Assembly: GCA_003235575.1 (NCBI GenBank)
Contig: QJVW01000079.1
Location: forward strand, 25,525 to 89,524
DNA: 64,000 nt
Direction: 5' to 3'
From: Candidatus Eiseniibacteriota bacterium
Lineage (GTDB): Bacteria > Eisenbacteria > RBG-16-71-46 > SZUA-252
Shown: piece after piece, positions 12,085-38,041 of the stretch
Layout of the letters: the number at the start of each line of letters is the position of its first letter
Position numbering within the stretch: position 1 is the first letter of the stretch
Notes under the pieces: generated by a model
Seen by the model: only the letters and a program-made list of their open reading frames with translations
Databases searched by the model: none
What the model was told of the DNA's origin: nothing
Program-made: the position numbers and the translations under genes

Positions 12085-12101
12085 CCCGCCGGAGGCGTCT
12101 C

Positions 12102-13828: not shown

Positions 13829-13874
13829 GCCCGGCACGCCGACGGCGCGTCGCCGTCCGCACGGAGGACCTACC

Positions 13875-14981: not shown

Positions 14982-15002
14982 CCGCCCGCCACGGGGAACG
15001 GC

Positions 15003-15752: not shown

Positions 15753-15783
15753 GTCGGGCGTCCGGCAGCGGAGGAGGGGCAAG

Positions 15784-17708: not shown

Positions 17709-17717
17709 GGGGCAGCC

Positions 17718-19025: not shown

Positions 19026-19039
19026 GGGAGGGAGGCCTC

Positions 19040-20715: not shown

Positions 20716-21032
20716 ACCGGTCCGCCGAGGAGGGGTCGGGCGCGCCTCCCGACCGCCTCGCTTCTCTCGTCCGCGAGGAGGCGCTGCGCGCCGAGGCGCA
20801 GGCGCAGGTCCGACCCGATCCCGCCCGACTGGAGCAGGGGTGGACCCGGCGCTTCGTCGTCGAGGCGCGGCGGGTGGAGGAGTACGTGCGTCTCTACGAG
20901 TCGATCGGCTACGAGGTGGCCGCCGATCCCGTACGGCGCGAGCAGGTGGACGACCGCTGCGATGACTGCCGCGTCGTGCTCCTGCTGGATTACCGGACGA
21001 TCTACACCCGAACGAAAGAGGTGTCCCCATGA
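20712..21032 (+). CDS. Small uncharacterised protein (106 aa) with CxxC
   Basis: ATGA overlaps at both ends; GWTRRF...LYESIGYEV...RCDDC...TIYTR; codon style matches neighbours. Confidence 0.75.
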   Translation: MNRSAEEGSGAPPDRLASLVREEALRAEAQAQVRPDPARLEQGWTRRFVVEARRVEEYVRLYESIGYEVAADPVRREQVDDRCDDCRVVLLLDYRTIYTRTKEVSP

Positions 21033-22746: not shown

Positions 22747-22839
22747 GGGGATCAGAATACTCTATAGTTCGGTCCTAGAGCAATTTGGGGATGTCGGCCA
22801 CGCCGCCGGACGGGCCCGTCCCCCGTGGAGGTGAGTGCC

Positions 22840-23556
22840 ATGACGCAAGGAACAGCCTTGGGTCGCGCCGTCACCGTCGACGCCCGCGACCTCGCGCAGC
22901 AGCTGCCCTTTCTAGAAGGCGCCGGTCCAGCGATCCGTAGAAAGATCGCCGACGCCGGAACCGTCGCGCATCTGGCGCGCGACGAGTACTTCCTGCGGGA
23001 AGGGGACGTCTGCTCGACGTTCGCGATCGTGCTTTCCGGCCGCCTTCGGGTCTTCAAGTTGGGCGAGAGCGGCCAGGAGATCACGCTGTACCACGTCGGT
23101 CCGGGTGAGGCGTGTCCGCTGAACGTCTCCTGCATCCTCTCCGATCGTCCGGTGCCCGCGATGGCGAAGGCGGAGGATGACGTGTCCGCGCTCGTGGTCC
23201 CGGCCGACACCTTCCGCGCCTGGATGGCGGACGTGGCGCCCCTGCGGGCCTTTATCTTCGAAATGTTCGCCGAACGATTGACCGAGGTGATGTCCCTCGT
23301 CGAGGAGGTCGCGTTCCGGAAAATGGATCAGCGATTGGCTTCGTACTTGATGGCCATGTTCGACCAGGAGGAAGAGACGGGGGACTGCGTCGCGGTGACC
23401 CACGCGCACATCGCATCCGAACTGGGCACGGCGCGCGAAGTGGTCAGCCGCTTGCTCAAGGAATTCGAACGGCTGGGCGCCATCGAACTCTCCCGCGGGC
23501 GCATCTACCTCCGCCGTCCCGAGCTGCTCGCCACGTGGAACCAGCATGATGCGTAG
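22840..23556 (+). CDS. Crp/Fnr family transcriptional regulator
   Basis: cNMP-like domain (SGRLRVFK...EITLYHVGPGEAC), C-terminal HTH THAHIASELGTAREVVSRLL; GGAGG SD before ATG 22840. Confidence 0.9.
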   Translation: MTQGTALGRAVTVDARDLAQQLPFLEGAGPAIRRKIADAGTVAHLARDEYFLREGDVCSTFAIVLSGRLRVFKLGESGQEITLYHVGPGEACPLNVSCILSDRPVPAMAKAEDDVSALVVPADTFRAWMADVAPLRAFIFEMFAERLTEVMSLVEEVAFRKMDQRLASYLMAMFDQEEETGDCVAVTHAHIASELGTAREVVSRLLKEFERLGAIELSRGRIYLRRPELLATWNQHDA

Positions 23557-23714
23557 ACGGGAAGGGCCGACGGCGCCACGGAGTCTCTGGGGAGTGGACG
23601 CTTCCCTTGACCACGGGGGTCTGGCAAAGGGTGACTCGGGGAGCATCTCGTCGAGGTGCGCCGGGCGCCGCCGGAATCCCATCGCTATGATGCGCCGCGC
23701 GGCGCAACGATTCC

Positions 23715-23728
23715 GTGACCACGGTCAC
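23715..23728. promoter_or_regulatory. GTGA-N6-TCAC palindrome, candidate Crp-family site
   Basis: GTGACC-AC-GGTCAC between the Crp/Fnr gene and the next start. Confidence 0.35.
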
Positions 23729-23734
23729 CATTCT

Positions 23735-25072
23735 ATGTGCTTTGCAGACAGCGGGTTCGGTGTTCGACGCGCGCTCGCGGTCCTCGTGTGCGTCGCCGCC
23801 ATCGCCGCGCTCGTTCCGGGACAGGCGCGCGCCGCCGCGGAACGATTCTACGACCGCCTTCGTTCCGCCCGCGCCCTGGCCGCGGAGGGTGATCTCGCGG
23901 CCGCCCGCGAGTTGTTCGTAACGCTCGACAGGGAGGAAGGGGGCCACCCGTCGTCCCTGTGGAGTCTGGCGCGGATCGACGCGATACGCGGCGACGGGGA
24001 AGGCGCGGTCCGCGCGCTCGACGCGTTCGCGGGAATGGGCCTGGCGGGCTTTCCCGCGCGCGATTCGAGCTTCGCCGTCCTCAACGGTTTTCCCCGGTAC
24101 GAGACCGTGCTGCTGCGGCTCGCGAAGAACGCGGCGCCGCTGGCGAACGCCTCCGTCGCGCATCCTCTGGACGATGCGGGACTACTGCCGGAAGACCTGG
24201 CCTACGACCTGCGAACGCGGACCCTCTACGTCAGCAGCATTCACCGTCGCAAGGTGATCGCCATCGACAGCACGGGGACCCAGCGCGACTTCGTCGGCCC
24301 CGCGCAGAACGGCGTGTGGGGCGTGTACGGACTGGCGCTCGATGCGACGCGGAATCTCCTCTGGGGTAGCATGGCCGCGGGTCCCCTTTGCGAGAACGGC
24401 GATCCCGCCGATTCGGGGCGCACGGCGCTCGTCTGTTGGGATCTAGCTTCGGGAACGGAACGTCGGCGGGTCGAGTTGCCGCGCGACGGCGCGAGCCACG
24501 TCCTGGGCGACATCACGCTCGGGGAGGATGGAACCGTCTACGCCACCGAGTCGCTCGGCGGCGCACTCTACGCCCTTCGACCCGATGCCGCGGCCCTGGA
24601 TACGCTGGCGGCGCCCGGATCGTTCGGCTCTCCACAGTCGCCCGTCGTGCTTCCGGGAGGCGATCGCCTGATCGTCGCGGACTTCCCGCGGGGGCTCGTG
24701 CAGTTCGATCTCGCGACCCGGTCGATGGCTACGTTTCCGAAGCCGAGGTCGATGGCAGCCACCGGCATCGACGGGCTGACCTTGGTCCCCCGGCCGGGCG
24801 GATACGGACTGCTCGGCGTCCAAAACGGCACGCGGCCACGAAGAATCCTCTGGCTTTCGCTGGATGGAACCGCGGAACGCGTTCTGGGCTGGAAGGTCTT
24901 GGAGCAGGCGACCCCCGCCCTCGGCGAGCCGACGCACGCCATCGCCGTCGGCGACGAGGCCCTGATCATCGGCAACAGCGGCTGGGAGCGCGTCAACGAT
25001 CGGGACGAACTCGAGATGGGTCCCGGCGCAACCCCCCCCGCGATCCTTCGCATCCAATTGCCCGCTAAGTAG
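23735..25072 (+). CDS. Exported TPR plus beta-propeller (SMP-30/NHL-like) protein
   Basis: Signal peptide; LLPEDLAYD, VYGLALD, LGDITLGEDGTVY, GIDGL repeats; start uncertain. Confidence 0.7.
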   Translation: MCFADSGFGVRRALAVLVCVAAIAALVPGQARAAAERFYDRLRSARALAAEGDLAAARELFVTLDREEGGHPSSLWSLARIDAIRGDGEGAVRALDAFAGMGLAGFPARDSSFAVLNGFPRYETVLLRLAKNAAPLANASVAHPLDDAGLLPEDLAYDLRTRTLYVSSIHRRKVIAIDSTGTQRDFVGPAQNGVWGVYGLALDATRNLLWGSMAAGPLCENGDPADSGRTALVCWDLASGTERRRVELPRDGASHVLGDITLGEDGTVYATESLGGALYALRPDAAALDTLAAPGSFGSPQSPVVLPGGDRLIVADFPRGLVQFDLATRSMATFPKPRSMAATGIDGLTLVPRPGGYGLLGVQNGTRPRRILWLSLDGTAERVLGWKVLEQATPALGEPTHAIAVGDEALIIGNSGWERVNDRDELEMGPGATPPAILRIQLPAK

Positions 25073-25207
25073 TACTACCCAAGTCCACCTGACCCCTCCC
25101 CACGCGTCCCGTAGTCTTCTCCGACATCGCTGCCGCAACCTCCAAGTGGGGCGCTGATAGCGCGAAGCGCCCCCGACGCGGGTGGGCCGCGGGGAAAGCG
25201 GGAATCG

Positions 25208-27361
25208 ATGATCGTGGCGAATGCACGGCGTGCCTTGGGGTTGCAGCGTCGCCGAGGTATACCCGATCCCACGAGCCGGCCCGTTCGCCGTGCCGGTCGC
25301 CTGGTCGTGATCCTCGCCATCGCGGGCCTGCTGGCTGCTTCCCACGGTTGGGCCCAGGACCCCGCCGCCAGCGCTCCGGCGACGCCCGACGAGGACTGTC
25401 TGGACTGCCACTCCGACGGCGCGCTCGAAACCGCCCGTATCCGCGGTCGCGTGGTCTCCCTGGACATCAATCCGACGATCCTTCGCCACTCGGCGCACCC
25501 CAAGGCCGCCTGCGTCGACTGCCATGCGGGATACGACCCGGAGGAGACGCCGCATCGCGCGACCATGACGCGCGTCGCCTGCGGCCGGTGCCACGAGTCG
25601 ATCGAGACGCTTCACGCCGCGTCGCTCCATGGACAGGCGGCCGCTCGGGGGGACCCGCTCGCGCCGCTCTGTCAGGATTGCCATGGGGGGCACGACGTCC
25701 TGCCGGTGCACGACCCCGACTCGCCGGTGGCGCCGCTTCGCATCCCGGCCCTCTGCGGGAAGTGCCACCAGGAGGGAGCGTCGGTCCAGCGCCAGCGAAC
25801 GATTCACCAGGACCGGATCGTGGAGAATTTCTCCGAGAGCATCCACGGGGAGGGGCTCCTTCGCAAAGGCCTCGTCGTGGCGCCGAGTTGCGTCTCGTGT
25901 CACACGGCGCACTCCATTCTTCCCCACACGAATCCGGCCTCGTCGATCGCCCGGCAGCGTATCGCGTCGACCTGCGCCCACTGCCACGCGGAAATCGAGC
26001 GCGTCCATCGCAAGATCATCAAGGGCGAACTCTGGGAAAAGCAGGCGCACGTGCTCCCCGCCTGCGTCGACTGCCACCAGCCGCACAAGATCCGGAAGGT
26101 CTTCTACGACCAGGGAATGGCCGACAAGGATTGCATGCGGTGCCACGGGAACACGGACTTGACCGCCACCGCCGATGGCCGCTCCCTCTACGTCGACGCC
26201 ACGCGGGTCGCGGCATCCCGCCACGCGAAGACCTCCTGCAGCCAGTGCCACACGGATGTCACGGCCTCCCGCGAGCGACCGTGCGAGACGATCGTCAGCA
26301 AGGTCGACTGCTCCTCGTGTCACGCCGAGATCGGGCAGGAATACCAGGCGAGCATGCACGGGGAACTCCAGGCGAAGAACGATCCGAACGCGCCGACCTG
26401 CAAGGAGTGCCACGGGGCGCACGAGGTCCTGGGCAAACTACAACCGGAGTCGCCGACGTTTCCCACCAACGTTCCCCGCCTGTGCGCCCGCTGTCATCGG
26501 GAAGGGGAGGAAGCGGCGAAGCGTTACAAGGGAAGCGAGCACGACATCGTGGCGCATTACACGGAGAGCATTCACGGCAAGGGCCTGATGAAGAGCGGGC
26601 TGACCGTGACCGCCATGTGTTCCAGCTGTCACACGGCGCACTCCGAGCGTCCGAAGGACGATCCGGCTTCGAGCGTGAACCCCGCCAACATTCCGGGCAC
26701 CTGCGGGCGATGCCACCACGGCATCGAGGAGCAGTTCGCGAGCAGCATCCACGCGGCGACCGCGGCGAACGCCGACAAGGAGCTACCGGTCTGCAGCGAC
26801 TGCCACTCGGCGCACACGATCTCCCGCACCGACGTCACGGGGTTCAAGCTCGACATCATGACGAAGTGCGGTCGGTGTCATGAGGAGATCTCGAAATCCT
26901 ACTTCGACACCTACCACGGCAAGGTGTCCCAGTTGGGGTACACGAAGACGGCCAAGTGCTACGATTGCCATGGGTCCCACGACATCCTGCCCGCAACCGA
27001 TCCGCGCTCGCATTTGAGCCGCGGCCATGTCGTGGAGACATGCCGGAAGTGCCACGCCGGCGCGACCCGTCGCTTCGCCGGCTACCTCACGCACGCGACA
27101 CACCACGACCCGAAGAAGTATCCGTTCCTCTTCTGGACGTTCTGGGGCATGACGTCGCTGCTCATCGGTACGTTCGTTGTCGGCGGTCTGCACACCGCGC
27201 TCTGGCTTCCGCGAGCGCTGGCCATGCGCCGGGAACGGAGCCGAGGCAAGACGGACGGCGACGACACCGCCGGGCCGGAGCACCCCGACGATGCCGCCGC
27301 GCCGCGCGATCCGGACGGACCGCCGTCGTCCCCGGGCGAGGAGGAACCGCATGATTCCTGA
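25208..27361 (+). CDS. Multiheme cytochrome c, 19 CxxCH, C-terminal membrane anchor
   Basis: 19 CxxCH motifs counted manually; signal peptide; C-terminal TM FLFWTFWGMTSLLIGTFVVGGLH. Confidence 0.93.
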   Translation: MIVANARRALGLQRRRGIPDPTSRPVRRAGRLVVILAIAGLLAASHGWAQDPAASAPATPDEDCLDCHSDGALETARIRGRVVSLDINPTILRHSAHPKAACVDCHAGYDPEETPHRATMTRVACGRCHESIETLHAASLHGQAAARGDPLAPLCQDCHGGHDVLPVHDPDSPVAPLRIPALCGKCHQEGASVQRQRTIHQDRIVENFSESIHGEGLLRKGLVVAPSCVSCHTAHSILPHTNPASSIARQRIASTCAHCHAEIERVHRKIIKGELWEKQAHVLPACVDCHQPHKIRKVFYDQGMADKDCMRCHGNTDLTATADGRSLYVDATRVAASRHAKTSCSQCHTDVTASRERPCETIVSKVDCSSCHAEIGQEYQASMHGELQAKNDPNAPTCKECHGAHEVLGKLQPESPTFPTNVPRLCARCHREGEEAAKRYKGSEHDIVAHYTESIHGKGLMKSGLTVTAMCSSCHTAHSERPKDDPASSVNPANIPGTCGRCHHGIEEQFASSIHAATAANADKELPVCSDCHSAHTISRTDVTGFKLDIMTKCGRCHEEISKSYFDTYHGKVSQLGYTKTAKCYDCHGSHDILPATDPRSHLSRGHVVETCRKCHAGATRRFAGYLTHATHHDPKKYPFLFWTFWGMTSLLIGTFVVGGLHTALWLPRALAMRRERSRGKTDGDDTAGPEHPDDAAAPRDPDGPPSSPGEEEPHDS

Positions 27362-28193
27362 CCGCGGGGATCTTCACTTCCAGCGGTTCTCGCGACTGAA
27401 CCGCCTGCTGCACATCGTGATGATCGTCAGTTTTCTGTCCCTGGCGCTGACGGGGCTGACGCTGAAATTCTCCTATACGGGTTGGGCCCGGCTCATGGCC
27501 CGCCTGTTCGGGGGGTTCGAGTCGGCCGGATATGTCCACCGCGTGGGCGCCGTGCTGATGATCGTGACGTTCCTCACCCACCTCGTCGATCTGGTCCGCC
27601 GCAAGAGCCGCGAATTCGGGACGTGGCGCAATCTCCTGTTCGGACCGAACACGATGCTCTTCACGCGCCGCGACTGGCGTGAATTCGTGGGGAGCATTCG
27701 GTGGTTCCTGGGAAAGGGGCCGCGCCCGCAGTACGGGCGGTGGACCTACTGGGAGAAGTTCGACTACTTCGCCGTCTTCTGGGGAATGATGGTGATCGGA
27801 TCGACCGGGCTGATGCTCTGGTTCTCGGAGTTGTTCACGATCGTGATTCCCGGATGGTTCCTGAACGTCGCGACCATCGTCCACAGCGACGAAGCGCTCC
27901 TGGCGGTCGGATTCATCTTCACCGTCCATTTCTTCAACACACACCTGCGGCCCGAGAAATTCCCCATGGACATCGTCATCTTCACCGGGCGGATGCCGCT
28001 CGAGGAGTTCCGAGAAGACAAGCCCGGCGAATACGCCGAGTTGGTCCGCCGCGGGGAACTGGAGCAGCACCTGGTCGAGCCGTACCCTCCCATCGTGATT
28101 CGCGCGATACGCGCCTTCGGTTTCACGGCGGTCGCGCTGGGGTTCACCATCGTTGTCTGGATCATCTACGCGATGGTGTTCGCATACCGGTGA
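27351..28193 (+). CDS. FdnI/HydC-type diheme cytochrome b
   Basis: LLHIVMIVSF, VHRVGA, YGRWTYWEKFDYFAVFWG, IVHSDEALLA...TVHF; ATG 27351 overlaps the upstream gene. Confidence 0.85.
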   Translation: MIPDRGDLHFQRFSRLNRLLHIVMIVSFLSLALTGLTLKFSYTGWARLMARLFGGFESAGYVHRVGAVLMIVTFLTHLVDLVRRKSREFGTWRNLLFGPNTMLFTRRDWREFVGSIRWFLGKGPRPQYGRWTYWEKFDYFAVFWGMMVIGSTGLMLWFSELFTIVIPGWFLNVATIVHSDEALLAVGFIFTVHFFNTHLRPEKFPMDIVIFTGRMPLEEFREDKPGEYAELVRRGELEQHLVEPYPPIVIRAIRAFGFTAVALGFTIVVWIIYAMVFAYR

Positions 28194-30424
28194 CCGCGCG
28201 GCGTCGCATCCTCCGCCTGGCGCTGGGACTGGCCCTGATCGGCGGCTCGCTCGCGGCGCTCTCCGGGGGAGGCGGGCAGGCGTCCGCGCGCGTGGCACGG
28301 AGCGCGGCGGGGCCGAACGCCGACGAGACCTGCCTCGAATGCCACAGCGGCGGAACCCTGGGGCCACGCCTCGTTCGCGGCGCGATGGTTCCCATGGACA
28401 TCGACCCGGCGTTGCTTCGCGCCTCGGCCCACGGCCGTTTCACCTGCATCAAGTGCCACGTCGGGTTCAACGCCGCGCGCACGCCCCACCGGGCGCGCAC
28501 GACGCCGGTCGATTGCGGACGCTGCCACGCCGATGCCGATTCGATTCACCAGTTTCACGCGCCGGCTACGAGCCGCGCGCTGACCGGCTCGTCGGCGGCG
28601 TTCACGTGCACCCTCTGTCACGGATCGCACGCCGTCGCCGGGGGGCACGCCGACACCACGCCCGAGGGCGCGCGCGCCATCGCCGTCGCCTGCGCGCGGT
28701 GCCACCAGGAGGAGGTGACCCACTACGCGAAGTCCGCGCATGGGCGGGCCGCGGCCGCGGGGCAGACCGGAGCGCCGACGTGCCTCTCCTGCCACACGAA
28801 CGAGATCAGCGCGGCGCGGTTTCAGGGGACCATCGCCGATCGCAAGCTGGAGCAGGAGCGGCTGTGCCTCCAGTGCCACCTGGAGGACCCCGAAGTTCGC
28901 CGGCGCATGGGGCCCAAGGCGGGCTTCATTCGGGCGTACGACGTCAGCGTCCACGGGGCGGCCCTGCACGCCGGCGACGACAAGGCGGCCACCTGCATCG
29001 ACTGCCACGGCAGCCACGACATGGCCAAGGGGTACGAGGAGGGGGCGCTCACCGAGAAACGCCATATCCCCGAGACGTGCGGTCAGTGCCACGAAAAGAT
29101 AGCCCACACCTTCGAGGCCAGCGTGCACGGCGAGGCGGTGCGGGAAGGAGTCACCGACGCGCCGGTTTGCACGGATTGCCACGGGGAGCACACGATCAAG
29201 AAGGCGGACGCCCCGGACTCTCCCGTGGCGCCGGGCAACGTCTCCGTCGAGGTTTGCTCGCCCTGCCACTCCTCCGTTCGCCTCGCCACGAAGTACGGCA
29301 TCCGAAGCGATCGGTACCAGACGTACAGCGATTCCTTCCACGGTCTGGCCATCCGTGGCGGCCAGGTATCCGCCGCCAATTGCGCGTCGTGCCACGGGTC
29401 GCACGACATTCTCCCGTCGGCCGATCCGCGAAGCATGATCTACCCGGGAAATTTGGCGACGACCTGCGGCCAATGCCATCCCGGCGCCAGCGCCGCCTTC
29501 GCCTCCGGCAAGGTGCACCTGGAGCCGGTGGCGTCCGACGAGCCGCTCCTCTACTGGATTGCGACGATCTACACGTTCCTCATCGTCGGGGTGGTGGGGG
29601 GGATGTTCCTCCACAACGCCGTCGACTTCTACCGGAAGGCGCGCCACCGGCTTCGTCGCCGCCGGGGGCTGGAACCCGAGCCCGAGCCGGTCGGCCATGC
29701 CCTCTACGTGCGGATGACGCGGAGCGAGCGTCTGCAGCACGCCTCGCTGCTGGTCAGCTTCGTCGTGCTGGTCGTGACCGGATTCATGCTGCGCTACCCC
29801 GAGTCGTGGTGGGTGGAGGGGCTCCGGCGGGTCTGGGGCGACCTCTTCGAGATTCGAAGCATCGTGCACCGCATCGCCGGGGTGCTCATGGTCGGGGCAT
29901 CCGTCGTCCACCTCCACTACCTGGGCTTCACGGAACGCGGCCGCGGATTCCTTCGCGACATGCTTCCGCGCCCGTCGGACCTGGGCGACGTGATCGGGGC
30001 CTTGCGCTACTATGCGGGTCTGACGCAAGATCGCCCGCGATTCGGGCGGTTCTCCTACATCGAGAAGGCCGAGTACTGGGCGCTCGTGTGGGGGACCGTG
30101 GTCATGGCCGTTACGGGAGTGATTCTGTGGTTCCAGGATCCGTTCATCGCCTTGCTGACCAAGCTGGGGTGGGATGCCGCGCGTTCCATCCACTACTACG
30201 AGGCCGTGCTGGCGACGCTGGCGATCCTGGTCTGGCACATCTATTTCGTAATCTTCAATCCCGATGTCTATCCCATGAACCTGGCCTGGTTGAAGGGGAC
30301 GCTCACCGAGGAGGAAATGGAGGACGAGCACCCGCTCGAGCTGGAGGCGATCCGTCGCCGACGCGAGCAGGAGAAGGCGGACTCCACGGTGCCGGACCCG
30401 GAAAGGGAGGAGCCGCGTGAATGA
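28190..30424 (+). CDS. CbcL-like fusion: 13-heme cytochrome c plus FdnI-type cytochrome b
   Basis: 13 CxxCH motifs, then QHASLL, VHRIAG, FGRFSYIEKAEYWALVWG, IHYYEAVLA...WHIY; GTG 28190 overlaps the upstream stop. Confidence 0.88.
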   Translation: MTARRRILRLALGLALIGGSLAALSGGGGQASARVARSAAGPNADETCLECHSGGTLGPRLVRGAMVPMDIDPALLRASAHGRFTCIKCHVGFNAARTPHRARTTPVDCGRCHADADSIHQFHAPATSRALTGSSAAFTCTLCHGSHAVAGGHADTTPEGARAIAVACARCHQEEVTHYAKSAHGRAAAAGQTGAPTCLSCHTNEISAARFQGTIADRKLEQERLCLQCHLEDPEVRRRMGPKAGFIRAYDVSVHGAALHAGDDKAATCIDCHGSHDMAKGYEEGALTEKRHIPETCGQCHEKIAHTFEASVHGEAVREGVTDAPVCTDCHGEHTIKKADAPDSPVAPGNVSVEVCSPCHSSVRLATKYGIRSDRYQTYSDSFHGLAIRGGQVSAANCASCHGSHDILPSADPRSMIYPGNLATTCGQCHPGASAAFASGKVHLEPVASDEPLLYWIATIYTFLIVGVVGGMFLHNAVDFYRKARHRLRRRRGLEPEPEPVGHALYVRMTRSERLQHASLLVSFVVLVVTGFMLRYPESWWVEGLRRVWGDLFEIRSIVHRIAGVLMVGASVVHLHYLGFTERGRGFLRDMLPRPSDLGDVIGALRYYAGLTQDRPRFGRFSYIEKAEYWALVWGTVVMAVTGVILWFQDPFIALLTKLGWDAARSIHYYEAVLATLAILVWHIYFVIFNPDVYPMNLAWLKGTLTEEEMEDEHPLELEAIRRRREQEKADSTVPDPEREEPRE

Positions 30425-30863
30425 CGATCGTACCGCCGATCCGGAACGGCGGGGCGTCCTGGTGTGGCTGACGCGAGGGTTCCTGGCTCTGTGGGCGCCG
30501 GCCGCCGCGGGGGTGACCACGACCTTCCTCAAGGCGCCCTCCGCGGAGGAGCGCCCGGGGGAGCGCCAATTGAAGGTCGGCTCCCTCTCGTCGCTGGCCG
30601 TCGGGGACGCGCGCTTCGTTCGGCACGGCACGGAGCCCGTCTACGTGCTTCGCGTCGGCGAGACGGAAGTGCTGGCTCTTTCGGCGATCTGCACGCACAT
30701 GCGCTGCGTGCTCAAATGGGATCGCGAGAAGGAGCTCTTTCACTGTCCGTGCCACGACGGGGTCTTCGACCGTCAGGGCAACGTGCTTTCGGGCCCGCCC
30801 AAGAAGCCGCTGCGTCACTATCGGGCGGACGTTCGCGCGGACGAAATCGTGGTCCACACATGA
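30417..30863 (+). CDS. Rieske [2Fe-2S] protein
   Basis: RRGVL twin-arginine anchor; boxes CTHMRC and CPCHDG; GPPKKPL. Confidence 0.9.
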   Translation: MNDDRTADPERRGVLVWLTRGFLALWAPAAAGVTTTFLKAPSAEERPGERQLKVGSLSSLAVGDARFVRHGTEPVYVLRVGETEVLALSAICTHMRCVLKWDREKELFHCPCHDGVFDRQGNVLSGPPKKPLRHYRADVRADEIVVHT

Positions 30864-30875
30864 GCGGAGGCCCTC

Positions 30876-32000
30876 GTGGACCCGAAACCGAACGATAAGC
30901 GATCCGTTCTGACGTGGATCGAAGATCGCGTCAATCTCACGGAGATCATTTCCTTCCTGAGCGTGTTCGGGCTGCTCCCCTCGGAGCTCGATTCGCGCAA
31001 ACGCGTGCGGGAGGCACTGGGCGAGGTGATGCGGCGGCCGCTCCCCTCGTACGCGCGCTGGCCGCACGTGCTCGGCATTCTGTCCTTCATCCTCTTCCTG
31101 TTTCTCGGTCTGACCGGAACGATGCTGGCGTTCTACTACCAGCCGACGGCCGACGTCGCCTACTCCTCGGTCACCTTGATCGCGCGCGACGTGGCGTTCG
31201 GGGGCTTGATCCACCAGGTGCACTACTGGGCCGCCGTGCTGTTCCTGCTGGTGCTGGGCGCCCGCGTCATTCGGTTCTTCTTCACGGGGCTCTACGCGCG
31301 GGGCCGGGAGGCGATCTGGATGGTGGCGGTGCTCACCTTCGTCTTCGCCACGATCGCCGACATGACAGGACGCCTCCTGCCATGGGACACCGCCGGCTAC
31401 TGGACCACGATCCGGGCGCGGGAAGTGACGGACGCCTTGCCGATCCTGGGGCCGATCACGGCGTTTCTCGTGGGGGGAAGCGGCCTTGATTCGCTGGTGC
31501 TGACGCGCTACTACGTGCTCCACATCGCCGTGTTCCCGTTGATCCTCGTGCTGCTCTTCTACATTCACTTCTCGAGCGTTCGCCGCGTCGGGCTCTCCCG
31601 CGTGGACCGGGCCCCGGGCACGCGCTCGCTTCGCGTGGCGATGTACGACCTGCTCCTGCTGGTCCTCTTCATGGTCGGGGGGCTCATCACCTTCGCCGTG
31701 CTCTTGCCGCATTCGTTCGGCGTGGTGGCGGACCCGTTCACGACGCCGCCGGACGCGCATCCACCCTGGTACCTCCTGGCGCCGCACGCGCTGATGGAGG
31801 CGTTCCCGGCGTTCGTGCCGAAGTTCCTTCGCGGGCTGATCCCGGAGATCATGCTGGCCGCCGTGCTCTTCCTGCCGTTCCTGGATCCGGAATCGGGCTC
31901 CGGGACGCGCCGGCGCCTCTTCCGGAACGTCGGGATCGGCGTGCTGCTGCTCTGGGTGGTGCTGACCGTCGCCGGATGGCGTCTGGAGGTGGGGCGATGA
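30876..32000 (+). CDS. Cytochrome b of a Rieske/cytochrome b complex (b6-like N-terminal and subunit IV-like parts fused)
   Basis: GTMLAFYYQPT, HYWAA, TGRLLPWD...GYW, LTRYYVLH...IH, PPWY (PEWY-equivalent). Confidence 0.88.
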   Translation: MDPKPNDKRSVLTWIEDRVNLTEIISFLSVFGLLPSELDSRKRVREALGEVMRRPLPSYARWPHVLGILSFILFLFLGLTGTMLAFYYQPTADVAYSSVTLIARDVAFGGLIHQVHYWAAVLFLLVLGARVIRFFFTGLYARGREAIWMVAVLTFVFATIADMTGRLLPWDTAGYWTTIRAREVTDALPILGPITAFLVGGSGLDSLVLTRYYVLHIAVFPLILVLLFYIHFSSVRRVGLSRVDRAPGTRSLRVAMYDLLLLVLFMVGGLITFAVLLPHSFGVVADPFTTPPDAHPPWYLLAPHALMEAFPAFVPKFLRGLIPEIMLAAVLFLPFLDPESGSGTRRRLFRNVGIGVLLLWVVLTVAGWRLEVGR

Positions 32001-33295
32001 GCGGCGTGGCGTGGCTCCTGCGGATCGCCGCGGTCGTCGTGCTGGCGGCGCCCGTTTCGGCCCAAGACGCGCCAACGGAAGCGATCACGCTTCCGGGCGG
32101 TCATGAGGAGACGAAGCCGCCCGCCCGCACCGTTCCGGCGGGAGCGAAGCCGAAGGGCACGTCCAAGATGTGCGGCGTGTGCCACTCGGAGGTGCGCGTG
32201 AAGTACGAGCAGGGGGCGCACGATCGGGAGGGAATCGGCTGCACGTCCTGCCACGGGGGAAACGCCGACGCCATCACCGTCGGGTCGGCCCACACGGGCG
32301 GCTATCGCGGCGTGCCCGCGCGCCGCGCGATTCCCGCGCTGTGCGCGTCGTGCCACGCGGACGTGACCAAGATGCGGTTCTACAACCTGCCCTCGGACCA
32401 GTACGCGCTCTACCAGACGTCGCAGCACGGCGTCCTGCTCGCGAAGGGCGACAGCAACGCCGCGGTCTGCACCGATTGCCATGGCGTCCACGAAATCCGT
32501 CCGCCCGAGGACCCGCAAAGCCGCGTCTTCGGGCGCAACATACCGAGCACCTGCGGCACCTGCCATGGAACGCCGTCGTTCCAGGCCCGCTACAAACGGA
32601 AGGACAACCCGGTCACCGACTATCGGAAGGGCGTGCACGGGCGCGCGTACCTGACGGGCGCCAGCGACACGGCTCCCGAGTGCACCGCGTGCCACGGCAG
32701 TCACGGCGCCACGCCCCCCGGCGTCGGCGATGTGGAGAAGGTGTGCGGACAGTGCCACGAGACGGCGCGCGAGTACTTCGTGGGGAGCGCCCACAAGCAG
32801 GCGATGGACGACGCGGGGATCCCGGAGTGCGCCGCCTGTCACCACAGCCACAATACGATCGCCGTCGCGCCGCAGAAGATCAGCACCGTGTGTCAGGAGT
32901 GTCATGACGAGGGAGAGCCGCCGCTCCGCGTGGCCACCACGCTCGAGCGGATGATCGCGGAGGCGTCCGAGGAGATCGCGAAGGCGGACAGCCTCGTCGC
33001 GCAGGCGGCGAGCATCCCGCTGTACGTGGAGGACTACCGCTCCAGGCTCCAAGACGCGCGAACCGCCCTGCTGGAATCGGCGCCGGTCACCCACTCGCTC
33101 GACACGACGCTCGTCGAGCCGCACACGCGCCGTGCGCGATCCATCGCGGCGACGGTGAGTGAAGAAGTCGACGAGAAGTTGTCGAGTCGATGGTGGCACA
33201 AGGTCGGCCTGGGACTGTTCTGGTTCTACCTTCTGCTGACGGCCGCGATCATCACCAGGGCCCGCCGTCGGGCCGCGGCGGATTCCAAGCGGTGA
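31997..33295 (+). CDS. Multiheme cytochrome c, 9 CxxCH, C-terminal membrane anchor
   Basis: 9 CxxCH motifs; signal peptide; helical stalk; TM VGLGLFWFYLLLTAAII; ATGA overlap. Confidence 0.9.
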   Translation: MSGVAWLLRIAAVVVLAAPVSAQDAPTEAITLPGGHEETKPPARTVPAGAKPKGTSKMCGVCHSEVRVKYEQGAHDREGIGCTSCHGGNADAITVGSAHTGGYRGVPARRAIPALCASCHADVTKMRFYNLPSDQYALYQTSQHGVLLAKGDSNAAVCTDCHGVHEIRPPEDPQSRVFGRNIPSTCGTCHGTPSFQARYKRKDNPVTDYRKGVHGRAYLTGASDTAPECTACHGSHGATPPGVGDVEKVCGQCHETAREYFVGSAHKQAMDDAGIPECAACHHSHNTIAVAPQKISTVCQECHDEGEPPLRVATTLERMIAEASEEIAKADSLVAQAASIPLYVEDYRSRLQDARTALLESAPVTHSLDTTLVEPHTRRARSIAATVSEEVDEKLSSRWWHKVGLGLFWFYLLLTAAIITRARRRAAADSKR

Positions 33296-35091
33296 CACCA
33301 CGATTCCGCCTCCCCTCGCTGCCGCCGTCGTGGCGGGGGCGGCTGACGTCCGCGCCCATCCGCACGGCCGGATTCGCCCTGGCCTTGATGGTCGCGCTGG
33401 GCTTGATCGCGACGGTGACCGCCGTCGAGGTCACCAGCAAGCCGCGCTTCTGCGGTTCCTGCCACATCATGGCGCCCTACTACGAGTCGTGGCAGCACTC
33501 CTCGCACCACAACATCGCGTGCGTGGAATGCCACATCCCGCCCGGCGTCACCGCCGAGATCCGCAAGAAGTTCGAGGCGCTGTCCATGGTGGCTCGCTAC
33601 TTCACCGGGACGTACGGCACGAACCCCTGGACGGAGATCGAGGATGCGGCATGCCTGCGCTGCCACGAGCGTCGGCTCCTGGCGGGGAAGGAGTTGATCG
33701 GCGACATCGTCTTCGATCACACGGCGCACCTGTCCGAAATGCGCCGGGGCAAGACCCTGCGCTGCACGTCCTGCCACGGCCAGCTCGTGCAGGGAAGCCA
33801 CATCGCGGTCACCACGTCGACCTGCATCCTCTGCCACTTCAAGGGCGTGGAGGAGGGCGAGGAGACCACCCGGTGCGTCATCTGCCACACCACGCCGTCC
33901 AAGACCTACGAGTTGGGTTCGGTTCAATTCCGGCACTCGGACGTGACGCGGTACGGCATGGAGTGTCGGTGGTGCCACGAAAAGCCCCAGGGGAGCGAGG
34001 GCGAGGTGCCGCGCGAGCGCTGCGTGACCTGCCACAATCAGACCATTCGCCTGGAGAAGTACGGCGAGACCGAGTTGCTGCACCGAAAGCACGTCTCCGA
34101 GCACAAGATCGATTGCATGGATTGCCACCTGCACCTCGAACACGTGGCGCCGCTGGGCGAGGCCGGGTCGAAGAACGCGGCGGCCCGCCTGCAGGCGGCC
34201 ACCTCGCGGATTCACAAGGGGGCGTCGGAGTGCCGCGCCTGCCACGAGGCCGGGCACTCGCCGCAGCTGGCGCTCTATACGGGCACCGGCGGACGCAACG
34301 TGGAGTCGAGCCCGAGTCCCATGTTCGAATCGGGCGTGCGCTGCGAGGGGTGCCACATCCGGCTACCCGGCCAGGCGTCGGAGGTGCGGCGCGCGTCGGA
34401 TGTGTCGTGCATGGCGTGCCATGGTCCCGACTATCGGAAGATCTACCTCTCGTGGAAGTCGTCGATCGACCAGCGGTCGGGGGCGCTGGGCCGGCAACTG
34501 GCCGAGACCGCCCGCGCGATCGGGACCGCCACGCCGCGCTTCGCGGATGCCCGATTCAACCACGATCTCGTCGCGCGCGGTCGGGGCGTGCACAACGTGG
34601 AGTACGCCAACGCGCTGCTCCGACAGTCGCACGCGGACATGAACGCCGCACGTCGGGGCCGCGGCCTGGCTCCCCTGCCGCGTCCCTGGCCCGAACCGCC
34701 GTACGCGTCGCCCTGCTTCCGCTGTCACGAGGGCGTCGAGCAGCAACGCGGCTCGATGTTCGGGAAGCCCTTTGCGCACGAGCGCCACGTGGTCGCCTCG
34801 AAGATCGATTGCGCCGCCTGTCATCGAACGCACGAGGAACGGGACGAAGGAGAGGTGGTGCGCTTCGGGGCCTCAGGATGCGTGTCGTGTCACCACAAGC
34901 CGCCGGTCGCGGACTGCATCACATGCCACGGCGACGTACGCAAGCATACGGTCACGTCGTTCCGCGGCGAATTCGACCATGCCACGCACCTCGACGACGC
35001 GGAGAAGACCTGCGTCGAGTGCCATGACCTCAAGGCGCCGCCGCCGGGGGTGCGGACGAGCGTCTGCGCGGAGTGTCACGAGGACGAGTGA
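33292..35091 (+). CDS. Multiheme cytochrome c, 18 CxxCH, NapC/NirT-like N-terminus
   Basis: N-terminal TM then TSKPRFCGSCHIM..YYESWQHSSH...CVECH; 18 CxxCH motifs counted manually; GTGA overlap. Confidence 0.9.
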   Translation: MTPRFRLPSLPPSWRGRLTSAPIRTAGFALALMVALGLIATVTAVEVTSKPRFCGSCHIMAPYYESWQHSSHHNIACVECHIPPGVTAEIRKKFEALSMVARYFTGTYGTNPWTEIEDAACLRCHERRLLAGKELIGDIVFDHTAHLSEMRRGKTLRCTSCHGQLVQGSHIAVTTSTCILCHFKGVEEGEETTRCVICHTTPSKTYELGSVQFRHSDVTRYGMECRWCHEKPQGSEGEVPRERCVTCHNQTIRLEKYGETELLHRKHVSEHKIDCMDCHLHLEHVAPLGEAGSKNAAARLQAATSRIHKGASECRACHEAGHSPQLALYTGTGGRNVESSPSPMFESGVRCEGCHIRLPGQASEVRRASDVSCMACHGPDYRKIYLSWKSSIDQRSGALGRQLAETARAIGTATPRFADARFNHDLVARGRGVHNVEYANALLRQSHADMNAARRGRGLAPLPRPWPEPPYASPCFRCHEGVEQQRGSMFGKPFAHERHVVASKIDCAACHRTHEERDEGEVVRFGASGCVSCHHKPPVADCITCHGDVRKHTVTSFRGEFDHATHLDDAEKTCVECHDLKAPPPGVRTSVCAECHEDE

Positions 35092-35118
35092 CGCCGGGAG
35101 CCGCGCGCCCGCGACGGC

Positions 35119-35787
35119 TCAGTCCTTGTCGTCCCTCTTGAAGAACGAGCCGAGGCCCCGTTCGATGGCGCGGTAGGATCCGAGGCCGATCCCCAGGGCG
35201 AACGCGACGCCGACGGCTCCGAAGCCGATCAGGAATGCCGCCAGCACCATTTCGCGGGCCAGGCGCAGCTGCCACAGGATGATCGCGACGATGATGCCGA
35301 CCATGGACGCCTTCACCACCATGGCGATCAAGCGCGGCCGCGTCACGCCCTCCTCTTCCAGGATTTCGTGGAGGCGCGCTTCGAGCGCGTTGGCCGCGGC
35401 CAGTCCCACGCCCAAGAGAATGCCGGCGAGGGCCAGGTTCGGCAGGTAGAACACGACGTTGTCGATGAGGCGCGACAGCGCCAAGAGGCCCCACCGTTCC
35501 AGCGTGTCGTCCAGGAATACGAGGATGATCAGAAGCATCGTCACGTTCCCGGCGATGTTGTAGAGGGTGGAACGGACGTCGCCCTTCCCGAACGCCGCGC
35601 GCCACCCCGCGCGTCCCGCCAGGCGGTCGAGTCGAAGCCAGATCAGGAGGCGAATGACGGCGCGCTTGGCGAGCCACCCGACGAGCACCCCCAGGGCGAG
35701 AACCAGCAGCCCCGCCGCCAGGGTGGGTAGGAAGTCCTGGATCTGTTCCCAGAGAATCGCGAGTGGCTGACCCGATTGGGGATTCAT
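35119..35787 (-). CDS. Membrane protein with MscS-associated conserved TM-helix repeats
   Basis: FLPTLAAGLLVL, YLPNLALAGIL, AFALGIGLG; no long cytoplasmic MscS beta-domain. Confidence 0.65.
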   Translation of the reverse strand: MNPQSGQPLAILWEQIQDFLPTLAAGLLVLALGVLVGWLAKRAVIRLLIWLRLDRLAGRAGWRAAFGKGDVRSTLYNIAGNVTMLLIILVFLDDTLERWGLLALSRLIDNVVFYLPNLALAGILLGVGLAAANALEARLHEILEEEGVTRPRLIAMVVKASMVGIIVAIILWQLRLAREMVLAAFLIGFGAVGVAFALGIGLGSYRAIERGLGSFFKRDDKD

Positions 35788-35794
35788 GGCTCCT

Positions 35795-38041
35795 CTACTT
35801 TCTGCCCGTGAAGAATCGTTCGAAGCGACCCGAGTGGTGGGCTTCGACGTCCCGTACGACGATCAGGGGGCCGCGTCCGCGACGGGCGAGGACCCCGGGG
35901 AGTGTTTCGGCGAGGAGCGCGGCCACCGGATCGGTGCTCGGCGCCCCCATGACGACCAGGTCGCCCGGCTCCACCGCCCGCAGCAGGCCGACCCCGACGT
36001 TGCGACGTCGCAGGACCTCGAGCGGTGCGTCGATATCGGCCGCCTTCAGCGTTTCGCGTGCCGCCGCCTCCAGCGCGCGTGCCTCGCCGTCGGGGGTGCC
36101 GCTGGGGATTACGGTGACGGCGCGCGCGGTGGTGTCGTACTGCTCGGCGAACCGAGGCGCGAGCTCCGCGGCCAGTTGTGAATTGGCGCCGGACGTGACC
36201 GGCACGACGACGCCCCGAATCTGCTTGGGGTCCAGCGCGCCGTAGACGACGCCCACCTGGTTCGGCGCATCCTGAATGACGCGTTCGACGATCGAGGCGA
36301 CGAGGCGCTCCAAGAGCGATCGGGCGACGGGCTGGCCCAGCAGGAGGAAGTTGCAGTCCTCCTCGCGGGCGGTCTCCAGGATGCCCTGGCTGACGCGATG
36401 GGCGATCTTCAGCACGCCGCGAACGGGTACGCCGCGCTTCGCCGCGTACTCCACGGCCTCGTCCAGGAGCGGCTCCAATTTGCGCGCGAGCGGCCGTCCC
36501 GCCATCAGCGATTGCCCCAACGGGACCTCGGCGACGGTTACGACCACGATCTCGCCCTTGTGCTGGCGGGCGATGACGATGGCCGCTTCCATCAGGGACG
36601 GCATCGTTCGCGCGCTCGAGATCGCGGCGAGCACGCTGTATTCCTGGCGATCGATCCGCTCCATCCATCGGACGCGTTCGGCGAACGCGACCTCGCGGGT
36701 GCGGCTGTAGCCGTAGTAGAAGGCGACCCCCGCCGCGATCCAGCCCCCGGCCGCGAGCCACGCCAGCGGGTACTGGAAGAACATGAACACCGCGATGAAG
36801 AGCATCGTGGCGATGGCCAGGATCGGCGTGAAGGGCATGAACGGGACCTTGAACCCGCGGTCGAGTTCGGGGTGGGACTTCCGGAGGCGGATCACCGCCA
36901 CGTTCACGCCGCCGAAGAGGAGCAGGAACATCACGCCCGCCGCCGCGGCGACCTGCTCGATCGGCAGCGCGATCGCCATGCCGATGATCAGGATCGTCGA
37001 GAAGAGAATCGCGACATGGGGCGTCGCCGTCTTGGGATGCACCTTCGCCACCATGGTGGGGAGGCTGGCGTCGCGCGCCATCGCGAAGGCCACGCGCGAG
37101 GAGGAATAGATCGTCGCGTTCAGCGCCGAGATGGTCGACAAGAGCCCGCCCACCAGGATCACGATGCCGCCGCCCAGCACGAACTGGTTGGCCGCGGCGA
37201 CGAGGGCGATCTCCTTGGCCTGGCCCAGGTACTCCGTCACCATCATCCCCACGGGGGGCGTGACGGCCCCGATGGCGACGAGGGCGACCAGCAGGTAGAT
37301 CGGGATCACGATGAGGAGGGAGAGGAAGACGGCCCGGGGCACGTTCCGCTTCGGTGACTCCACTTCCTCGCTGGTCTGGGCGATGATCTCGTAGCCCTCG
37401 AACGCGATGAACGTCAGTCCCATGGCGGCGAAGATGCCGGCCCAGCCGTGCGTCATGAACGGCGTGAAGGCCCCCTGCCACCCGGGCCGGTGGACCATCG
37501 CCCACAGTCCCGCCGCGATGAAGGCGCCGATGATGACGATCTTCCCGATGGTCACCACGTTTCCGGCCTTGCCCGTCTCCGAGGCGCCCCGGTAGTTGAT
37601 GTAGGCGAAGATCGAGCAGGCGAGGACCGCCAACCAGATCTCCAGCGTGCCGAAGGGGAGCGCTGGCGTGGTGATGCCGGCGACCGAGAGCACTTCCTTG
37701 AAGTACGCGCCGAACCCGAGCGCGTAGAGCGAGCAGGCCACGGCGTGGGCGAACCAATCCATCCACCCGGAAAGAAAACCGGCGGGATCGGGGAGCGATG
37801 CCTTGATCCAAAGGTAGCCGCCGCCGGCGCCGTGGATGGCGCTGCCCAATTCCGCGTAGGCCATGGCGGTCAGCAGCGCGACGAATCCATTCAGGACGAA
37901 CACCAGCAGGAGCGCGGGGCCGGCCACGCCTGCCGCGATGCCGGTCAACACGAAGATGCCGGCGCCGATCATGGCGCCGACACCGATCATCGTGACATCG
38001 ACGAGCCGCATTTCGCGACTCAGGCGTACTTCGGTGGCCAC
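35795..38041 (-). CDS. APC-family amino acid permease fused to universal stress protein domains
   Basis: IGVGAMIGAGIFVL, AYAELGSA, FIAFEGYE, SSSRVAFAMARD; C-terminal USP-like repeats (ILETAREEDC, VVVPVTSG). Confidence 0.88.
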   Translation of the reverse strand: MATEVRLSREMRLVDVTMIGVGAMIGAGIFVLTGIAAGVAGPALLLVFVLNGFVALLTAMAYAELGSAIHGAGGGYLWIKASLPDPAGFLSGWMDWFAHAVACSLYALGFGAYFKEVLSVAGITTPALPFGTLEIWLAVLACSIFAYINYRGASETGKAGNVVTIGKIVIIGAFIAAGLWAMVHRPGWQGAFTPFMTHGWAGIFAAMGLTFIAFEGYEIIAQTSEEVESPKRNVPRAVFLSLLIVIPIYLLVALVAIGAVTPPVGMMVTEYLGQAKEIALVAAANQFVLGGGIVILVGGLLSTISALNATIYSSSRVAFAMARDASLPTMVAKVHPKTATPHVAILFSTILIIGMAIALPIEQVAAAAGVMFLLLFGGVNVAVIRLRKSHPELDRGFKVPFMPFTPILAIATMLFIAVFMFFQYPLAWLAAGGWIAAGVAFYYGYSRTREVAFAERVRWMERIDRQEYSVLAAISSARTMPSLMEAAIVIARQHKGEIVVVTVAEVPLGQSLMAGRPLARKLEPLLDEAVEYAAKRGVPVRGVLKIAHRVSQGILETAREEDCNFLLLGQPVARSLLERLVASIVERVIQDAPNQVGVVYGALDPKQIRGVVVPVTSGANSQLAAELAPRFAEQYDTTARAVTVIPSGTPDGEARALEAAARETLKAADIDAPLEVLRRRNVGVGLLRAVEPGDLVVMGAPSTDPVAALLAETLPGVLARRGRGPLIVVRDVEAHHSGRFERFFTGRK

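Follow-up and report, generated by a model that had tools for sequence, protein, structure and literature searches.

Of all steps in extracellular respiration outside Geobacter and Shewanella, the exit of electrons from the quinone pool is understood least. The same question is raised by a 64-kb stretch of DNA (contig QJVW01000079.1, 68% GC; hereafter the window) from an uncultured marine-sediment bacterium whose nearest relatives are metagenome-assembled genomes (MAGs) of Candidatus Eisenbacteria. Seven consecutive genes of the window (g1 to g7, Table 1) encode four multiheme c-type cytochrome chains, membrane cytochromes b and a Rieske protein, and an earlier note, made from the letters of the sequence, had read them as a single combined inner-membrane hub. 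What do these genes have in common with known quinone-linked systems, and in which direction would they move electrons?

By comparison with related loci, we infer that the core of the operon is a widespread, uncharacterised four-gene module (g4 to g7), made up of a Rieske protein, a cytochrome b with heme bL only and two cytochromes with 27 hemes between them, and flanked by two units that resemble CbcL. With modest confidence we favor a reading in which these inner-membrane modules exchange electrons between the (mena)quinone pool and periplasmic heme chains, mainly outward for extracellular transfer. The module would then be a candidate answer to the question of quinone exit for several uncultured sediment and soil groups.

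The heme-rich operon and its conserved core

The seven open reading frames (ORFs) occupy positions 25208-35091, all on the forward strand, and their third-position GC is high, as is typical for genes of the window. With gene starts chosen at the junctions, neighboring genes overlap at five of six junctions, by 11, 4 (GTGA), 8, 4 (ATGA) and 4 (GTGA) nucleotides (nt), and the sole intergenic gap, between g4 and g5, measures 12 nt; the mostly overlapping starts and stops described in the earlier note were borne out. A recount of CXXCH motifs gave 19 in g1, 13 in g3, 9 in g6 and 18 in g7, again 59 c-type heme motifs in all, and CX3CH, CX4CH and CXXCK motifs were absent from the operon genes. These four are the only ORFs with at least two CXXCH in the six-frame translated window. 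Their motif density (59 in 2,496 residues, or 23.6 per 1000) is enriched ~600-fold over the rest of the window (5 in ~125,500 six-frame residues, or 0.04 per 1000), and the clustering far exceeds chance. Every heme domain was placed on the periplasmic side by hydropathy topology. Searches with Pfam and NCBIfam agreed with the inventory given earlier (two FdnI-type cytochromes b, a Rieske protein, a bc-type cytochrome b and an NrfH-like 18-heme cytochrome) and, as had also been claimed, detected no molybdoenzyme, hydrogenase, NrfD or beta-barrel gene inside the operon.

About 40 related loci (designated by L numbers) were compared by tblastn and ORF clustering. Peptides specific to the clade, searched in 185,579 species genomes, yielded 33 loci, all from MAGs, to which divergent members were added. 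Most of the 33 belong either to Candidatus Eisenbacteria, with cytochrome b proteins 64-81% identical to that of the window, or to the Acidobacteriota (Polarisedimenticolia, Thermoanaerobaculia), where the identity is 40-60%. Genes for a Rieske protein, a cytochrome b with Arg at a heme ligand position (Arg-type, see below), a 9-heme cytochrome and a cytochrome of about 18 hemes were found in about 30 loci, always in the same order. The hosts of this invariant unit are Eisenbacteria, Acidobacteriota and unassigned genomes, ranging in GC content from 31% (L038) to 71% (L028). Heme numbers of 9 + 18 were counted in the window, L029, L038, L040 and L041, with 9 + 21 in L039 and 9 + 12 in L042.

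The genes upstream of the core are less constant. A g3-type fusion of 11-13 hemes with an FdnI-type cytochrome b lies directly 5' of the Rieske gene in most loci. In L014 it is replaced by g1-g2, and in L031 by at least a g2-type cytochrome b, at which point the contig starts; no g3 was found within 9.5 kb in L032, and none in L041. An obligatory core partnership of g3 was ruled out by L014, L032 and L041, which do without it. The g1-g2 pair is facultative. Its place is upstream in L005, L008, L009, L011 and L014, downstream in L025 and on the opposite strand in L028, and in L039 the two are fused into one gene. An invariant g4-g7, a usually adjacent g3 and a facultative g1-g2 together make the operon a mosaic. 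The combined hub of the earlier note is not an indivisible whole, as only g4-g7 is invariant.

In several loci from Acidobacteriota and other groups, the Arg-type module is adjoined by a canonical trio of Rieske protein, four-His PEWY cytochrome b and 9-heme cytochrome, so the two cytochrome b types are not interchangeable. In Ignavibacteria, a canonical Rieske/cytochrome b/11-heme set shares a cluster with genes resembling g1, g2 and g3 and with a NapC-like gene of 6 hemes. The module would most economically have arisen when a canonical multiheme-associated Rieske/cytochrome b unit was duplicated, one copy then losing its heme bH site and gaining the 18-heme subunit.

Co-transcription of the genes, implied when they were first described as an operon, is suggested by their translational coupling, their conserved order and one exact metatranscriptome contig. 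The sequence of the window recurs in hydrothermal-vent, marine-sediment and mangrove metagenomes, and one sediment metatranscriptome contains two exact 151-nt contigs, of which one crosses the g6/g7 junction; these RNA contigs are too thin as proof of an operon. A sigma-70 scan of positions 22500-36000 gave zero promoters, and sigma-54 and FNR/CRP-box counts were at chance level with none 5' of g1, although the consensus sequences used may not suit this phylum. Terminator-like sites were not clearly beyond the shuffled background.

Table 1. Positions in the window of the operon genes, of residues and motifs discussed in the text, and of the upstream cluster.
Feature	Position	Strand	Description
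g1	25208-27361	+	717-aa 19-heme c-type cytochrome
g2	27351-28193	+	280-aa FdnI/HydC-type cytochrome b
g3	28190-30424	+	744-aa fusion of a 13-heme c-type domain and an FdnI-type diheme b domain
g4	30417-30863	+	148-aa Rieske [2Fe-2S] protein
g5	30876-32000	+	374-aa seven-helix cytochrome b
His116 of g5	31221-31223	+	bL-side; aligns to b6 His86 (heme bp/bL)
Arg130 of g5	31263-31265	+	Helix B, at b6 His100 (heme bn/bH)
His216 of g5	31521-31523	+	bL-side, helix D
His231 of g5	31566-31568	+	Helix-D bH His
Qo motif of g5	31761-31772	+	PPWY, vs PEWY/PDWY
g6	31997-33295	+	432-aa 9-heme c-type cytochrome
g7	33292-35091	+	599-aa 18-heme c-type cytochrome with NrfH/NapC-like start
Heme-1 motif of g7	33451-33471	+	CGSCHIM; aligns to heme 1 of NrfH chain 2j7a_C
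TetR regulator	12069-12782		Precedes the benzoyl-CoA reductase cluster
Class I benzoyl-CoA reductase cluster	12779-20715	+	Complete-looking, ATP-dependent, ring-processing

The cytochrome b of the core and its partners

The product of g5 matches Cytochrome_B and Cytochrom_B_C, a b6-like part being fused to a subunit-IV-like part. Its helix B aligned without gaps to cytochrome b6 structures (HMMER), and the two His of helix D have the b6-like spacing of 14 residues. The four His that ligate hemes bL and bH in cytochrome b are not all present, as Arg130 stands at the second helix-B His. Arg occupies this position in 120/120 close homologues. An exhaustive search of 1.84 billion representatives, from which the cytochrome b clades were compared, revealed a sharp family boundary: Arg in 18/18 representatives of the clade (down to ~35% identity) and His in 124/124 canonical relatives. 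The label of bc-type cytochrome b in the earlier note was therefore right as to family, but g5 is not of the canonical type, since a heme bH ligand is missing.

Other markers on the bH side are relaxed as well, and this in the Arg-type clade alone. The cytoplasmic-side Gly of helix C that packs against bH is present in 124/124 canonical relatives, and the clade has Ala (12), Gly (5) or Asn (1) in its place. Of the 120 close homologues, 12 lack the helix-D bH His, which 12/18 clade representatives have, and a small residue beside the helix-A Gly is changed to Ile, Leu or Val in the Arg-type clade. On the bL side, the markers G81, H116, G165 and H216 are essentially invariant. The clade also has its own invariant Arg on the periplasmic side (Arg180 of g5) and a conserved insertion of ~20 amino acids (aa) near the N-terminus on the cytoplasmic side. 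No Cys occurs in g5, so there is no attachment site for heme ci. At the Qo site, g5 lacks the carboxylate of PEWY- or PDWY-type motifs; among the 120 close homologues the first Pro is kept in 110, the second in 118, Trp in 115 and Tyr in 120, and divergent clade members have PLWF or PGWF.

We infer from these patterns that g5 keeps heme bL and the Qo site, and that the bis-His heme bH and a normal Qi site were probably lost or radically altered. With Arg in place of a bH ligand and relaxed bH-side markers, a canonical Q cycle by g5 appears unlikely. The cytochrome b of Pyrobaculum also lacks a heme bH ligand, which was read as heme loss (Kao and Hunte 2014, PMC4122944), and there too one bH His ligand is lost systematically within a lineage, as in the g5 clade. 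The Pyrobaculum proteins are archaeal, however, and unrelated in lineage and partners; in the g5 clade the helix-B His is replaced by an invariant Arg, and the partners carry 27 c-type hemes. If g5 is truly a bL-only protein, a Qo site and a Rieske protein working without the bH/Qi half would be a natural experiment on the Q cycle, and would be relevant both to how bc complexes evolved and to the energetics of metal respiration close to its thermodynamic limit. For the annotation of metagenomes, the markers of the module are Arg at the bH ligand position, PPWY, and the 9-heme and 18-heme partners.

The product of g4 matches PF00355 (E = 3e-14), and the NCBIfam models of b6f/bc1-type Rieske proteins stayed below their cut-offs. 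Its cluster boxes (CTHMRC...CPCHDGVF, positions 30690-30773) include both disulfide cysteines and are kept in all orthologues, and a possible twin-arginine (Tat)-like RR motif is present near the N-terminus. After box II, Gly and Phe are found at the positions of bovine Rieske Ser163 and Tyr165, a trait common to all orthologues. Mutagenesis has shown that the hydrogen bonds donated by Ser163 and Tyr165 raise the potential of the Rieske cluster. The absence of both donors marks g4 as a putative low-potential, menaquinol-type Rieske protein.

The place of g6, directly 3' of the cytochrome b gene, and its topology (signal peptide, long helical stalk and C-terminal membrane helix at aa 402-420) are those of cytochrome c1 (or f) in canonical complexes. 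Identity to the multiheme protein of the canonical Rieske/cytochrome b trios is 32-35% over nearly all of g6, and its 9-heme count held in all Arg-type modules counted (L029, L032, L038-L042). By position and homology, g6 would be the electron acceptor of the Rieske protein.

In g7, which matches PF03264 and TIGR03153 (NrfH), an N-terminal membrane helix (aa 27-45) is combined with a CXXCHxM first heme, as is typical of NrfH. Eighteen hemes were counted in 113/120 homologues, and CXXCHxM likewise in 113/120. The protein is 43-47% identical to orthologues in genomes of 31% and 56% GC. The NapC-like protein of Ignavibacteria matches it only over the first ~70 residues, which makes the 18-heme subunit specific to the Arg-type clade. 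Searches with this subunit yielded more than 1,100 relatives with generic annotation only, from sediment and soil genomes of Eisenbacteria, Acidobacteriota and unassigned groups. With NrfH, NapC and CymA, g7 shares the N-terminal helix, the CXXCHxM heme 1 and a second CXXCH at NrfH-like spacing; those proteins have ~160 aa and 4 hemes, whereas g7 has 599 aa and 18 hemes and always occurs with a Rieske/cytochrome b pair. None of the partner reductases NrfA, NapAB or TorA is encoded in the operon.

The module has in common with bc1 and b6f complexes the Rieske boxes, the seven-helix cytochrome b and the 14-residue His spacing in helix D. A multiheme c subunit in place of cytochrome c1 is shared with Geobacter Cbc6/ExtMNOPQ, with anammox Rieske/cytochrome b complexes and with the nap-linked pair of Caldithrix (PMC5877670, PMC12954380, PMC5317091). 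From bc1/b6f and these multiheme versions alike, the module differs by the helix-B Arg, by PPWY, by the absence of a Cys for heme ci and by the extra NrfH-like 18-heme subunit that is always present. The ext cluster of Geobacter likewise combines a Rieske protein and a cytochrome b with cytochromes of 10 and 12 hemes (PMC5877670). Identity with Geobacter Ext/Cbc6 (ExtKLMNOPQS) was ruled out, as g5 scored 146 bits against NF040969, with a cut-off of 290, and is a fused protein, and as the ExtKL selenoprotein, the rhodanese and the ExtI porin are all missing (composition from PMC5877670). Alternative complex III was excluded because there is no NrfD-like or ActB-like gene. Sequence searches of the PDB returned only generic b6/bc1 and NrfH matches and no meaningful relative of g1, g3 or g6. 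No description of the cluster was found in the literature, and the expectation that no characterised complex would match it gene for gene was upheld.

As an alternative to extracellular electron transfer, the multiheme proteins could themselves reduce a soluble substrate in the periplasm (nitrite, hydroxylamine, sulfite, tetrathionate, or selenite/tellurite) or directly feed a reductase that does so, in the manner of NrfH-NrfA or of the Geobacter ext cluster. The best NCBIfam match of g5 is this NF040969 model, ExtP, of a selenite/tellurite reduction operon, g7 starts like NrfH, and the Rieske/cytochrome b pair of Caldithrix lies inside a nap locus (PMC5317091). We consider such a role very unlikely. 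The ExtP score is half of the cut-off, and neither a catalytic-heme motif nor a gene of the NrfA, Hao, MccA, Otr or molybdoenzyme type occurs in the operon or its conserved neighbors. A rhodanese, an ExtI-like porin and a selenocysteine cytochrome are likewise missing, and the conserved neighbors in relatives are porin-cytochrome pairs and further multiheme/b units. A catalytic heme of the NrfA/Hao type was ruled out, there being no CXXCK and no homology.

The FdnI-type units

In the product of g1, which begins with a signal peptide, a single C-terminal membrane helix (aa 640-658) leads to an acidic, proline-rich cytoplasmic tail, and Pfam matches are to Cytochrome_C7, c3_2 and Paired_CXXCH. 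The protein contains a tandem repeat of an 8-heme unit of ~243 aa, residues 96-338 and 339-581 being 31% identical without gaps; the true start may lie further downstream. The product of g2, with four predicted helices bearing four His positions and one extra C-terminal helix, matched PF01292 (E = 6e-6, 26.5 bits) and TIGR01583 (E = 2e-12, 47.5 bits) under the respective cut-offs of 30.1 and 115.85 bits. It is the membrane partner of g1. In formate dehydrogenase-N, FdnH and FdnI assemble with each other, and the layout of g1 + g2 mirrors this assembly.

From its signal peptide, the single chain of g3 runs through 13 hemes and a linker helix to four b-type helices, and the C-terminus matches PF01292 (E = 9e-16) and TIGR01583 (Ni_hydr_CYTB / formate dehydrogenase gamma). 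The FdnI-type His residues H517, H560, H668 and H683 are invariant in a family of 120 homologues, 106 of which have exactly 13 CXXCH. Identity to the Ignavibacteria counterparts is 53% for g3, vs 62% for g1 (to a 19-heme homologue) and 73% for g2.

Within g2, the assembler depth of a 480-nt stretch (27324-27807) was ~450x and 185x in two metagenomes vs ~10x for its neighbors, and many diverging metagenome contigs end inside it. The FdnI-type b gene g2 thus appears to be common to many community members at near-identical sequence. This fits the unusually high conservation of g2, and is a hint that the g1-g2 pair may have spread laterally.

The CbcL design, in which a membrane diheme b of the FdnI/HydC type is attached to a periplasmic multiheme c domain, is present in g3 and split over two genes in g1 + g2. 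CbcL (Cbc1) of Geobacter sulfurreducens, in which a diheme b is linked to 9 c hemes, has the architecture of g3 (PMC9129911), and CbcA/CbcB are divided between two genes in the manner of g1 and g2 (PMC13591261). ImcH, CbcL and CbcBA of Geobacter act in different potential windows (PMC9129911, PMC13591261), and like these potential-dependent branches the units g1-g2 and g3 stand side by side. The likeness to CbcL is one of architecture; g3 has 13 hemes and g1 has 19, vs 9 in CbcL and 7 in CbcA, and no match to a CbcL model came up in NCBIfam or Pfam. Unlike CbcL and CbcA, the FdnI-type units of the window share their operon with a Rieske/cytochrome b module.

Electron flow, neighboring genes and the window

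The neighbors of the module in relatives bear on the suggestion that it is an inner-membrane interface between quinones and multiheme cytochromes for extracellular electron transfer. In L039, an MtrA-like decaheme cytochrome and a porin of PF11854 (MtrB_PioB) lie just beyond the module, and homologues of both (65% and 56% identity) are found directly 5' of g3 in L028. In L041, a decaheme cytochrome is followed by a 692-aa protein with a signal peptide and abundant beta-strand-like sequence; the two are probably a porin-cytochrome pair. Ahead of the Ignavibacteria cluster with the canonical cytochrome b lie two multiheme cytochromes that carry type IX secretion tails. The suggestion gains support from the MtrA/MtrB-type neighbors in L028, L039 and probably L041, and from these Ignavibacteria cytochromes. 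The window itself contains no pair of porin and periplasmic decaheme cytochrome (MtrAB/Pcc conduit). Conduits of the MtrCAB type would be plausible recipients of the periplasmic electrons of the module, which is itself an inner-membrane system.

The following scheme is proposed for the favored, outward direction. Units A (g1 + g2) and B (g3) would work as CbcL/CbcBA-type units, in which a multiheme domain, held by a helix to a diheme b, is wired across the membrane to a quinone site. In unit C (g4-g7), quinol would be oxidised at the Qo site with release of two protons to the periplasm, and the first electron would pass through the Rieske cluster to the 9-heme chain. As there is no bH/Qi route, the second electron would not recross the membrane within cytochrome b and would exit from heme bL on the periplasmic side. 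There it would most plausibly be taken up by the membrane-proximal heme of the clade-specific 18-heme subunit, the obvious candidate for a bL acceptor, as its NrfH-like first heme should sit at the membrane surface. Both electrons would end in periplasmic wires and serve extracellular electron transfer to metal oxides, humics or partner cells through conduits encoded elsewhere in the genome. Outward flow is favored because a heterotroph needs an electron sink and because a low-potential Rieske protein would fit.

Several points weigh against this scheme or parts of it. The core occurs without any FdnI-type unit in L032 and L041, so units A and B need not be physical partners of unit C. Arg133 of g5, whose counterpart in canonical cytochrome b contacts a bH propionate, does not vary, and 108/120 close homologues and 12/18 representatives retain His231, so that a five-coordinate or otherwise ligated heme is conceivable. 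The AlphaFold model of the g5 monomer was poor (14-sequence alignment; predicted local distance difference test score (pLDDT) 59, predicted template modelling score (pTM) 0.47). In g7, Glu and Arg stand at the positions of NrfH Lys82 and Asp89, with Lys residues 1-2 positions off and a 2-residue gap nearby. The step from bL to the 18-heme subunit is purely hypothetical. No porin, outer-membrane cytochrome or heme-maturation gene was found in the 64-kb window, the two short RNA contigs could be DNA carry-over, and outward flow, though favored, has its direction fixed by no result here. The number of up to four quinol routes given in the earlier note is an upper bound: g7 retains the heme-1 motif, but the Lys82 and Asp89 positions are not clearly kept.

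Flow in the opposite direction would bring electrons from Fe(II), reduced humics, a syntroph or a cathode-like mineral through the heme wires to quinone, with the Rieske/cytochrome b part running in reverse. The FdnI-type b subunits speak for it, since in formate dehydrogenase-N they natively bring periplasmic electrons to a quinone-reducing site. The porins next to the module in L039 and L028 are of PF11854, a family to which reducing MtrB and Fe(II)-oxidising PioB proteins both belong, and the Qo motif of g5 is PPWY without a carboxylate. A Qo carboxylate is also absent from the APWY clade and from the PPWY complexes of Acidithiobacillus ferrooxidans, which are discussed as working in reverse (PMC4122944). 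Reversed Rieske/cytochrome b complexes normally need the bH/Qi half, however, which was apparently lost in g5, and the low-potential type of the Rieske protein fits menaquinol oxidation. The cluster for anaerobic aromatic degradation in this heterotroph also calls for an electron sink, and no marker specific to Cyc2, Mto or Pio came up, no test aimed at one having been made. We regard inward flow, the main rival, as unlikely, though it deserves to be taken seriously.

It is rather doubtful that g5, as a bL-only protein, carries out a periplasm-directed bifurcation of quinol electrons, with a high-potential branch from the Rieske protein to the 9-heme cytochrome and a low-potential branch for the strongly reducing semiquinone electron from bL to the 18-heme cytochrome. 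If it does, electrons would be pushed onto very low-potential extracellular acceptors at the cost of a parallel higher-potential one, and in reverse two donors would be merged onto quinone. As a variant idea, the FdnI-type diheme b of g3 could replace the lost bH/Qi half, so that two proteins would share one Q cycle.

Small monoheme class I cytochromes c adjoin the cluster in L005, L009, L014 (5' of the g1 homologue) and L041 (positions 8830-9180 of that locus), with none in the window; in L005, L009 and L014 a LuxR-type response regulator stands beside them. These cytochromes may be soluble carriers of the higher-potential branch. Sigma-54 response regulators accompany the cluster in several loci. 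In the window, a sigma-54-dependent response regulator and a HAMP histidine kinase (43240-46973, reverse strand) lie 8 kb downstream of g7; orthologous regulators adjoin the cytochrome cluster in L005, L016 and L019, and pairs of a PAS kinase and a sigma-54 regulator precede the Ignavibacteria clusters.

Upstream of the operon, the benzoyl-CoA reductase cluster (Table 1) contains a Zn alcohol dehydrogenase, two enoyl-CoA hydratases, a short-chain dehydrogenase, two HGD-D proteins and two BcrAD/BadFG ATPases. Could the operon be a dedicated electron route for this neighboring pathway? In L003 and L015, both from Eisenbacteria, the benzoyl-CoA operon directly abuts g3, and a precedent is given by Geobacter metallireducens, where a bc-type complex is clustered with p-cresol methylhydroxylase (PMC4122944 citing Peters 2007, Johannes 2008). 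In the window, however, five unrelated genes separate the two clusters. The three loci are closely related (cytochrome b 71-77% identical), so the gene order may be inherited, and it is missing in the other Eisenbacteria, Acidobacteriota and Ignavibacteria loci. Benzoyl-CoA reductase is moreover cytoplasmic, ferredoxin-dependent and reductive, with no obvious contact to periplasmic hemes. A dedicated route is highly improbable, and what stands of the link to anaerobic aromatic degradation drawn in the earlier note is the gene order shared by three related Eisenbacteria loci.

Compared with L003 and L015, insertions appear to flank g3-g7 in the window, with g1-g2 and four other genes on the 5' side and ~13 kb on the 3' side. 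Glutamate dehydrogenase lies directly 3' of g7 in L002, L003, L006, L015 and L033, followed in L006 and L015 by a PPDK_N-like gene. In the window, a glutamate dehydrogenase and a 996-aa protein with a PPDK_N domain are found at 48743-53235 (forward strand), so the ~13 kb after g7 look inserted. The insert contains mechanosensitive-channel-like, permease-Usp, TrkA, CorA, YHS, MFS and two-component genes.

Two further ORFs on the forward strand lie between the benzoyl-CoA cluster and g1. A 508-aa ORF (23546-25072) with a hydrophobic signal-like segment is co-directional with the operon and ends 135 nt before g1. It had no Pfam match even at E = 1, its 5' end overlaps a Crp/Fnr-type regulator gene (22825-23556), and in L006 and L033 homologues 56-58% identical to it lie ~6 kb 3' of the cluster. 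A 222-aa ORF (21029-21697) with a signal peptide and an alternating, Gly- and aromatic-rich sequence looks like a small outer-membrane beta-barrel, though its size falls short of an MtrB-type conduit, and Pfam gave no match. At the other side of the benzoyl-CoA cluster, isocitrate dehydrogenase is encoded beside the kinase/phosphatase AceK (5939-9008, reverse strand; both Pfam domains, E = 1e-105); this regulatory pair, present here in what is probably a candidate-phylum genome, is best known from Proteobacteria.

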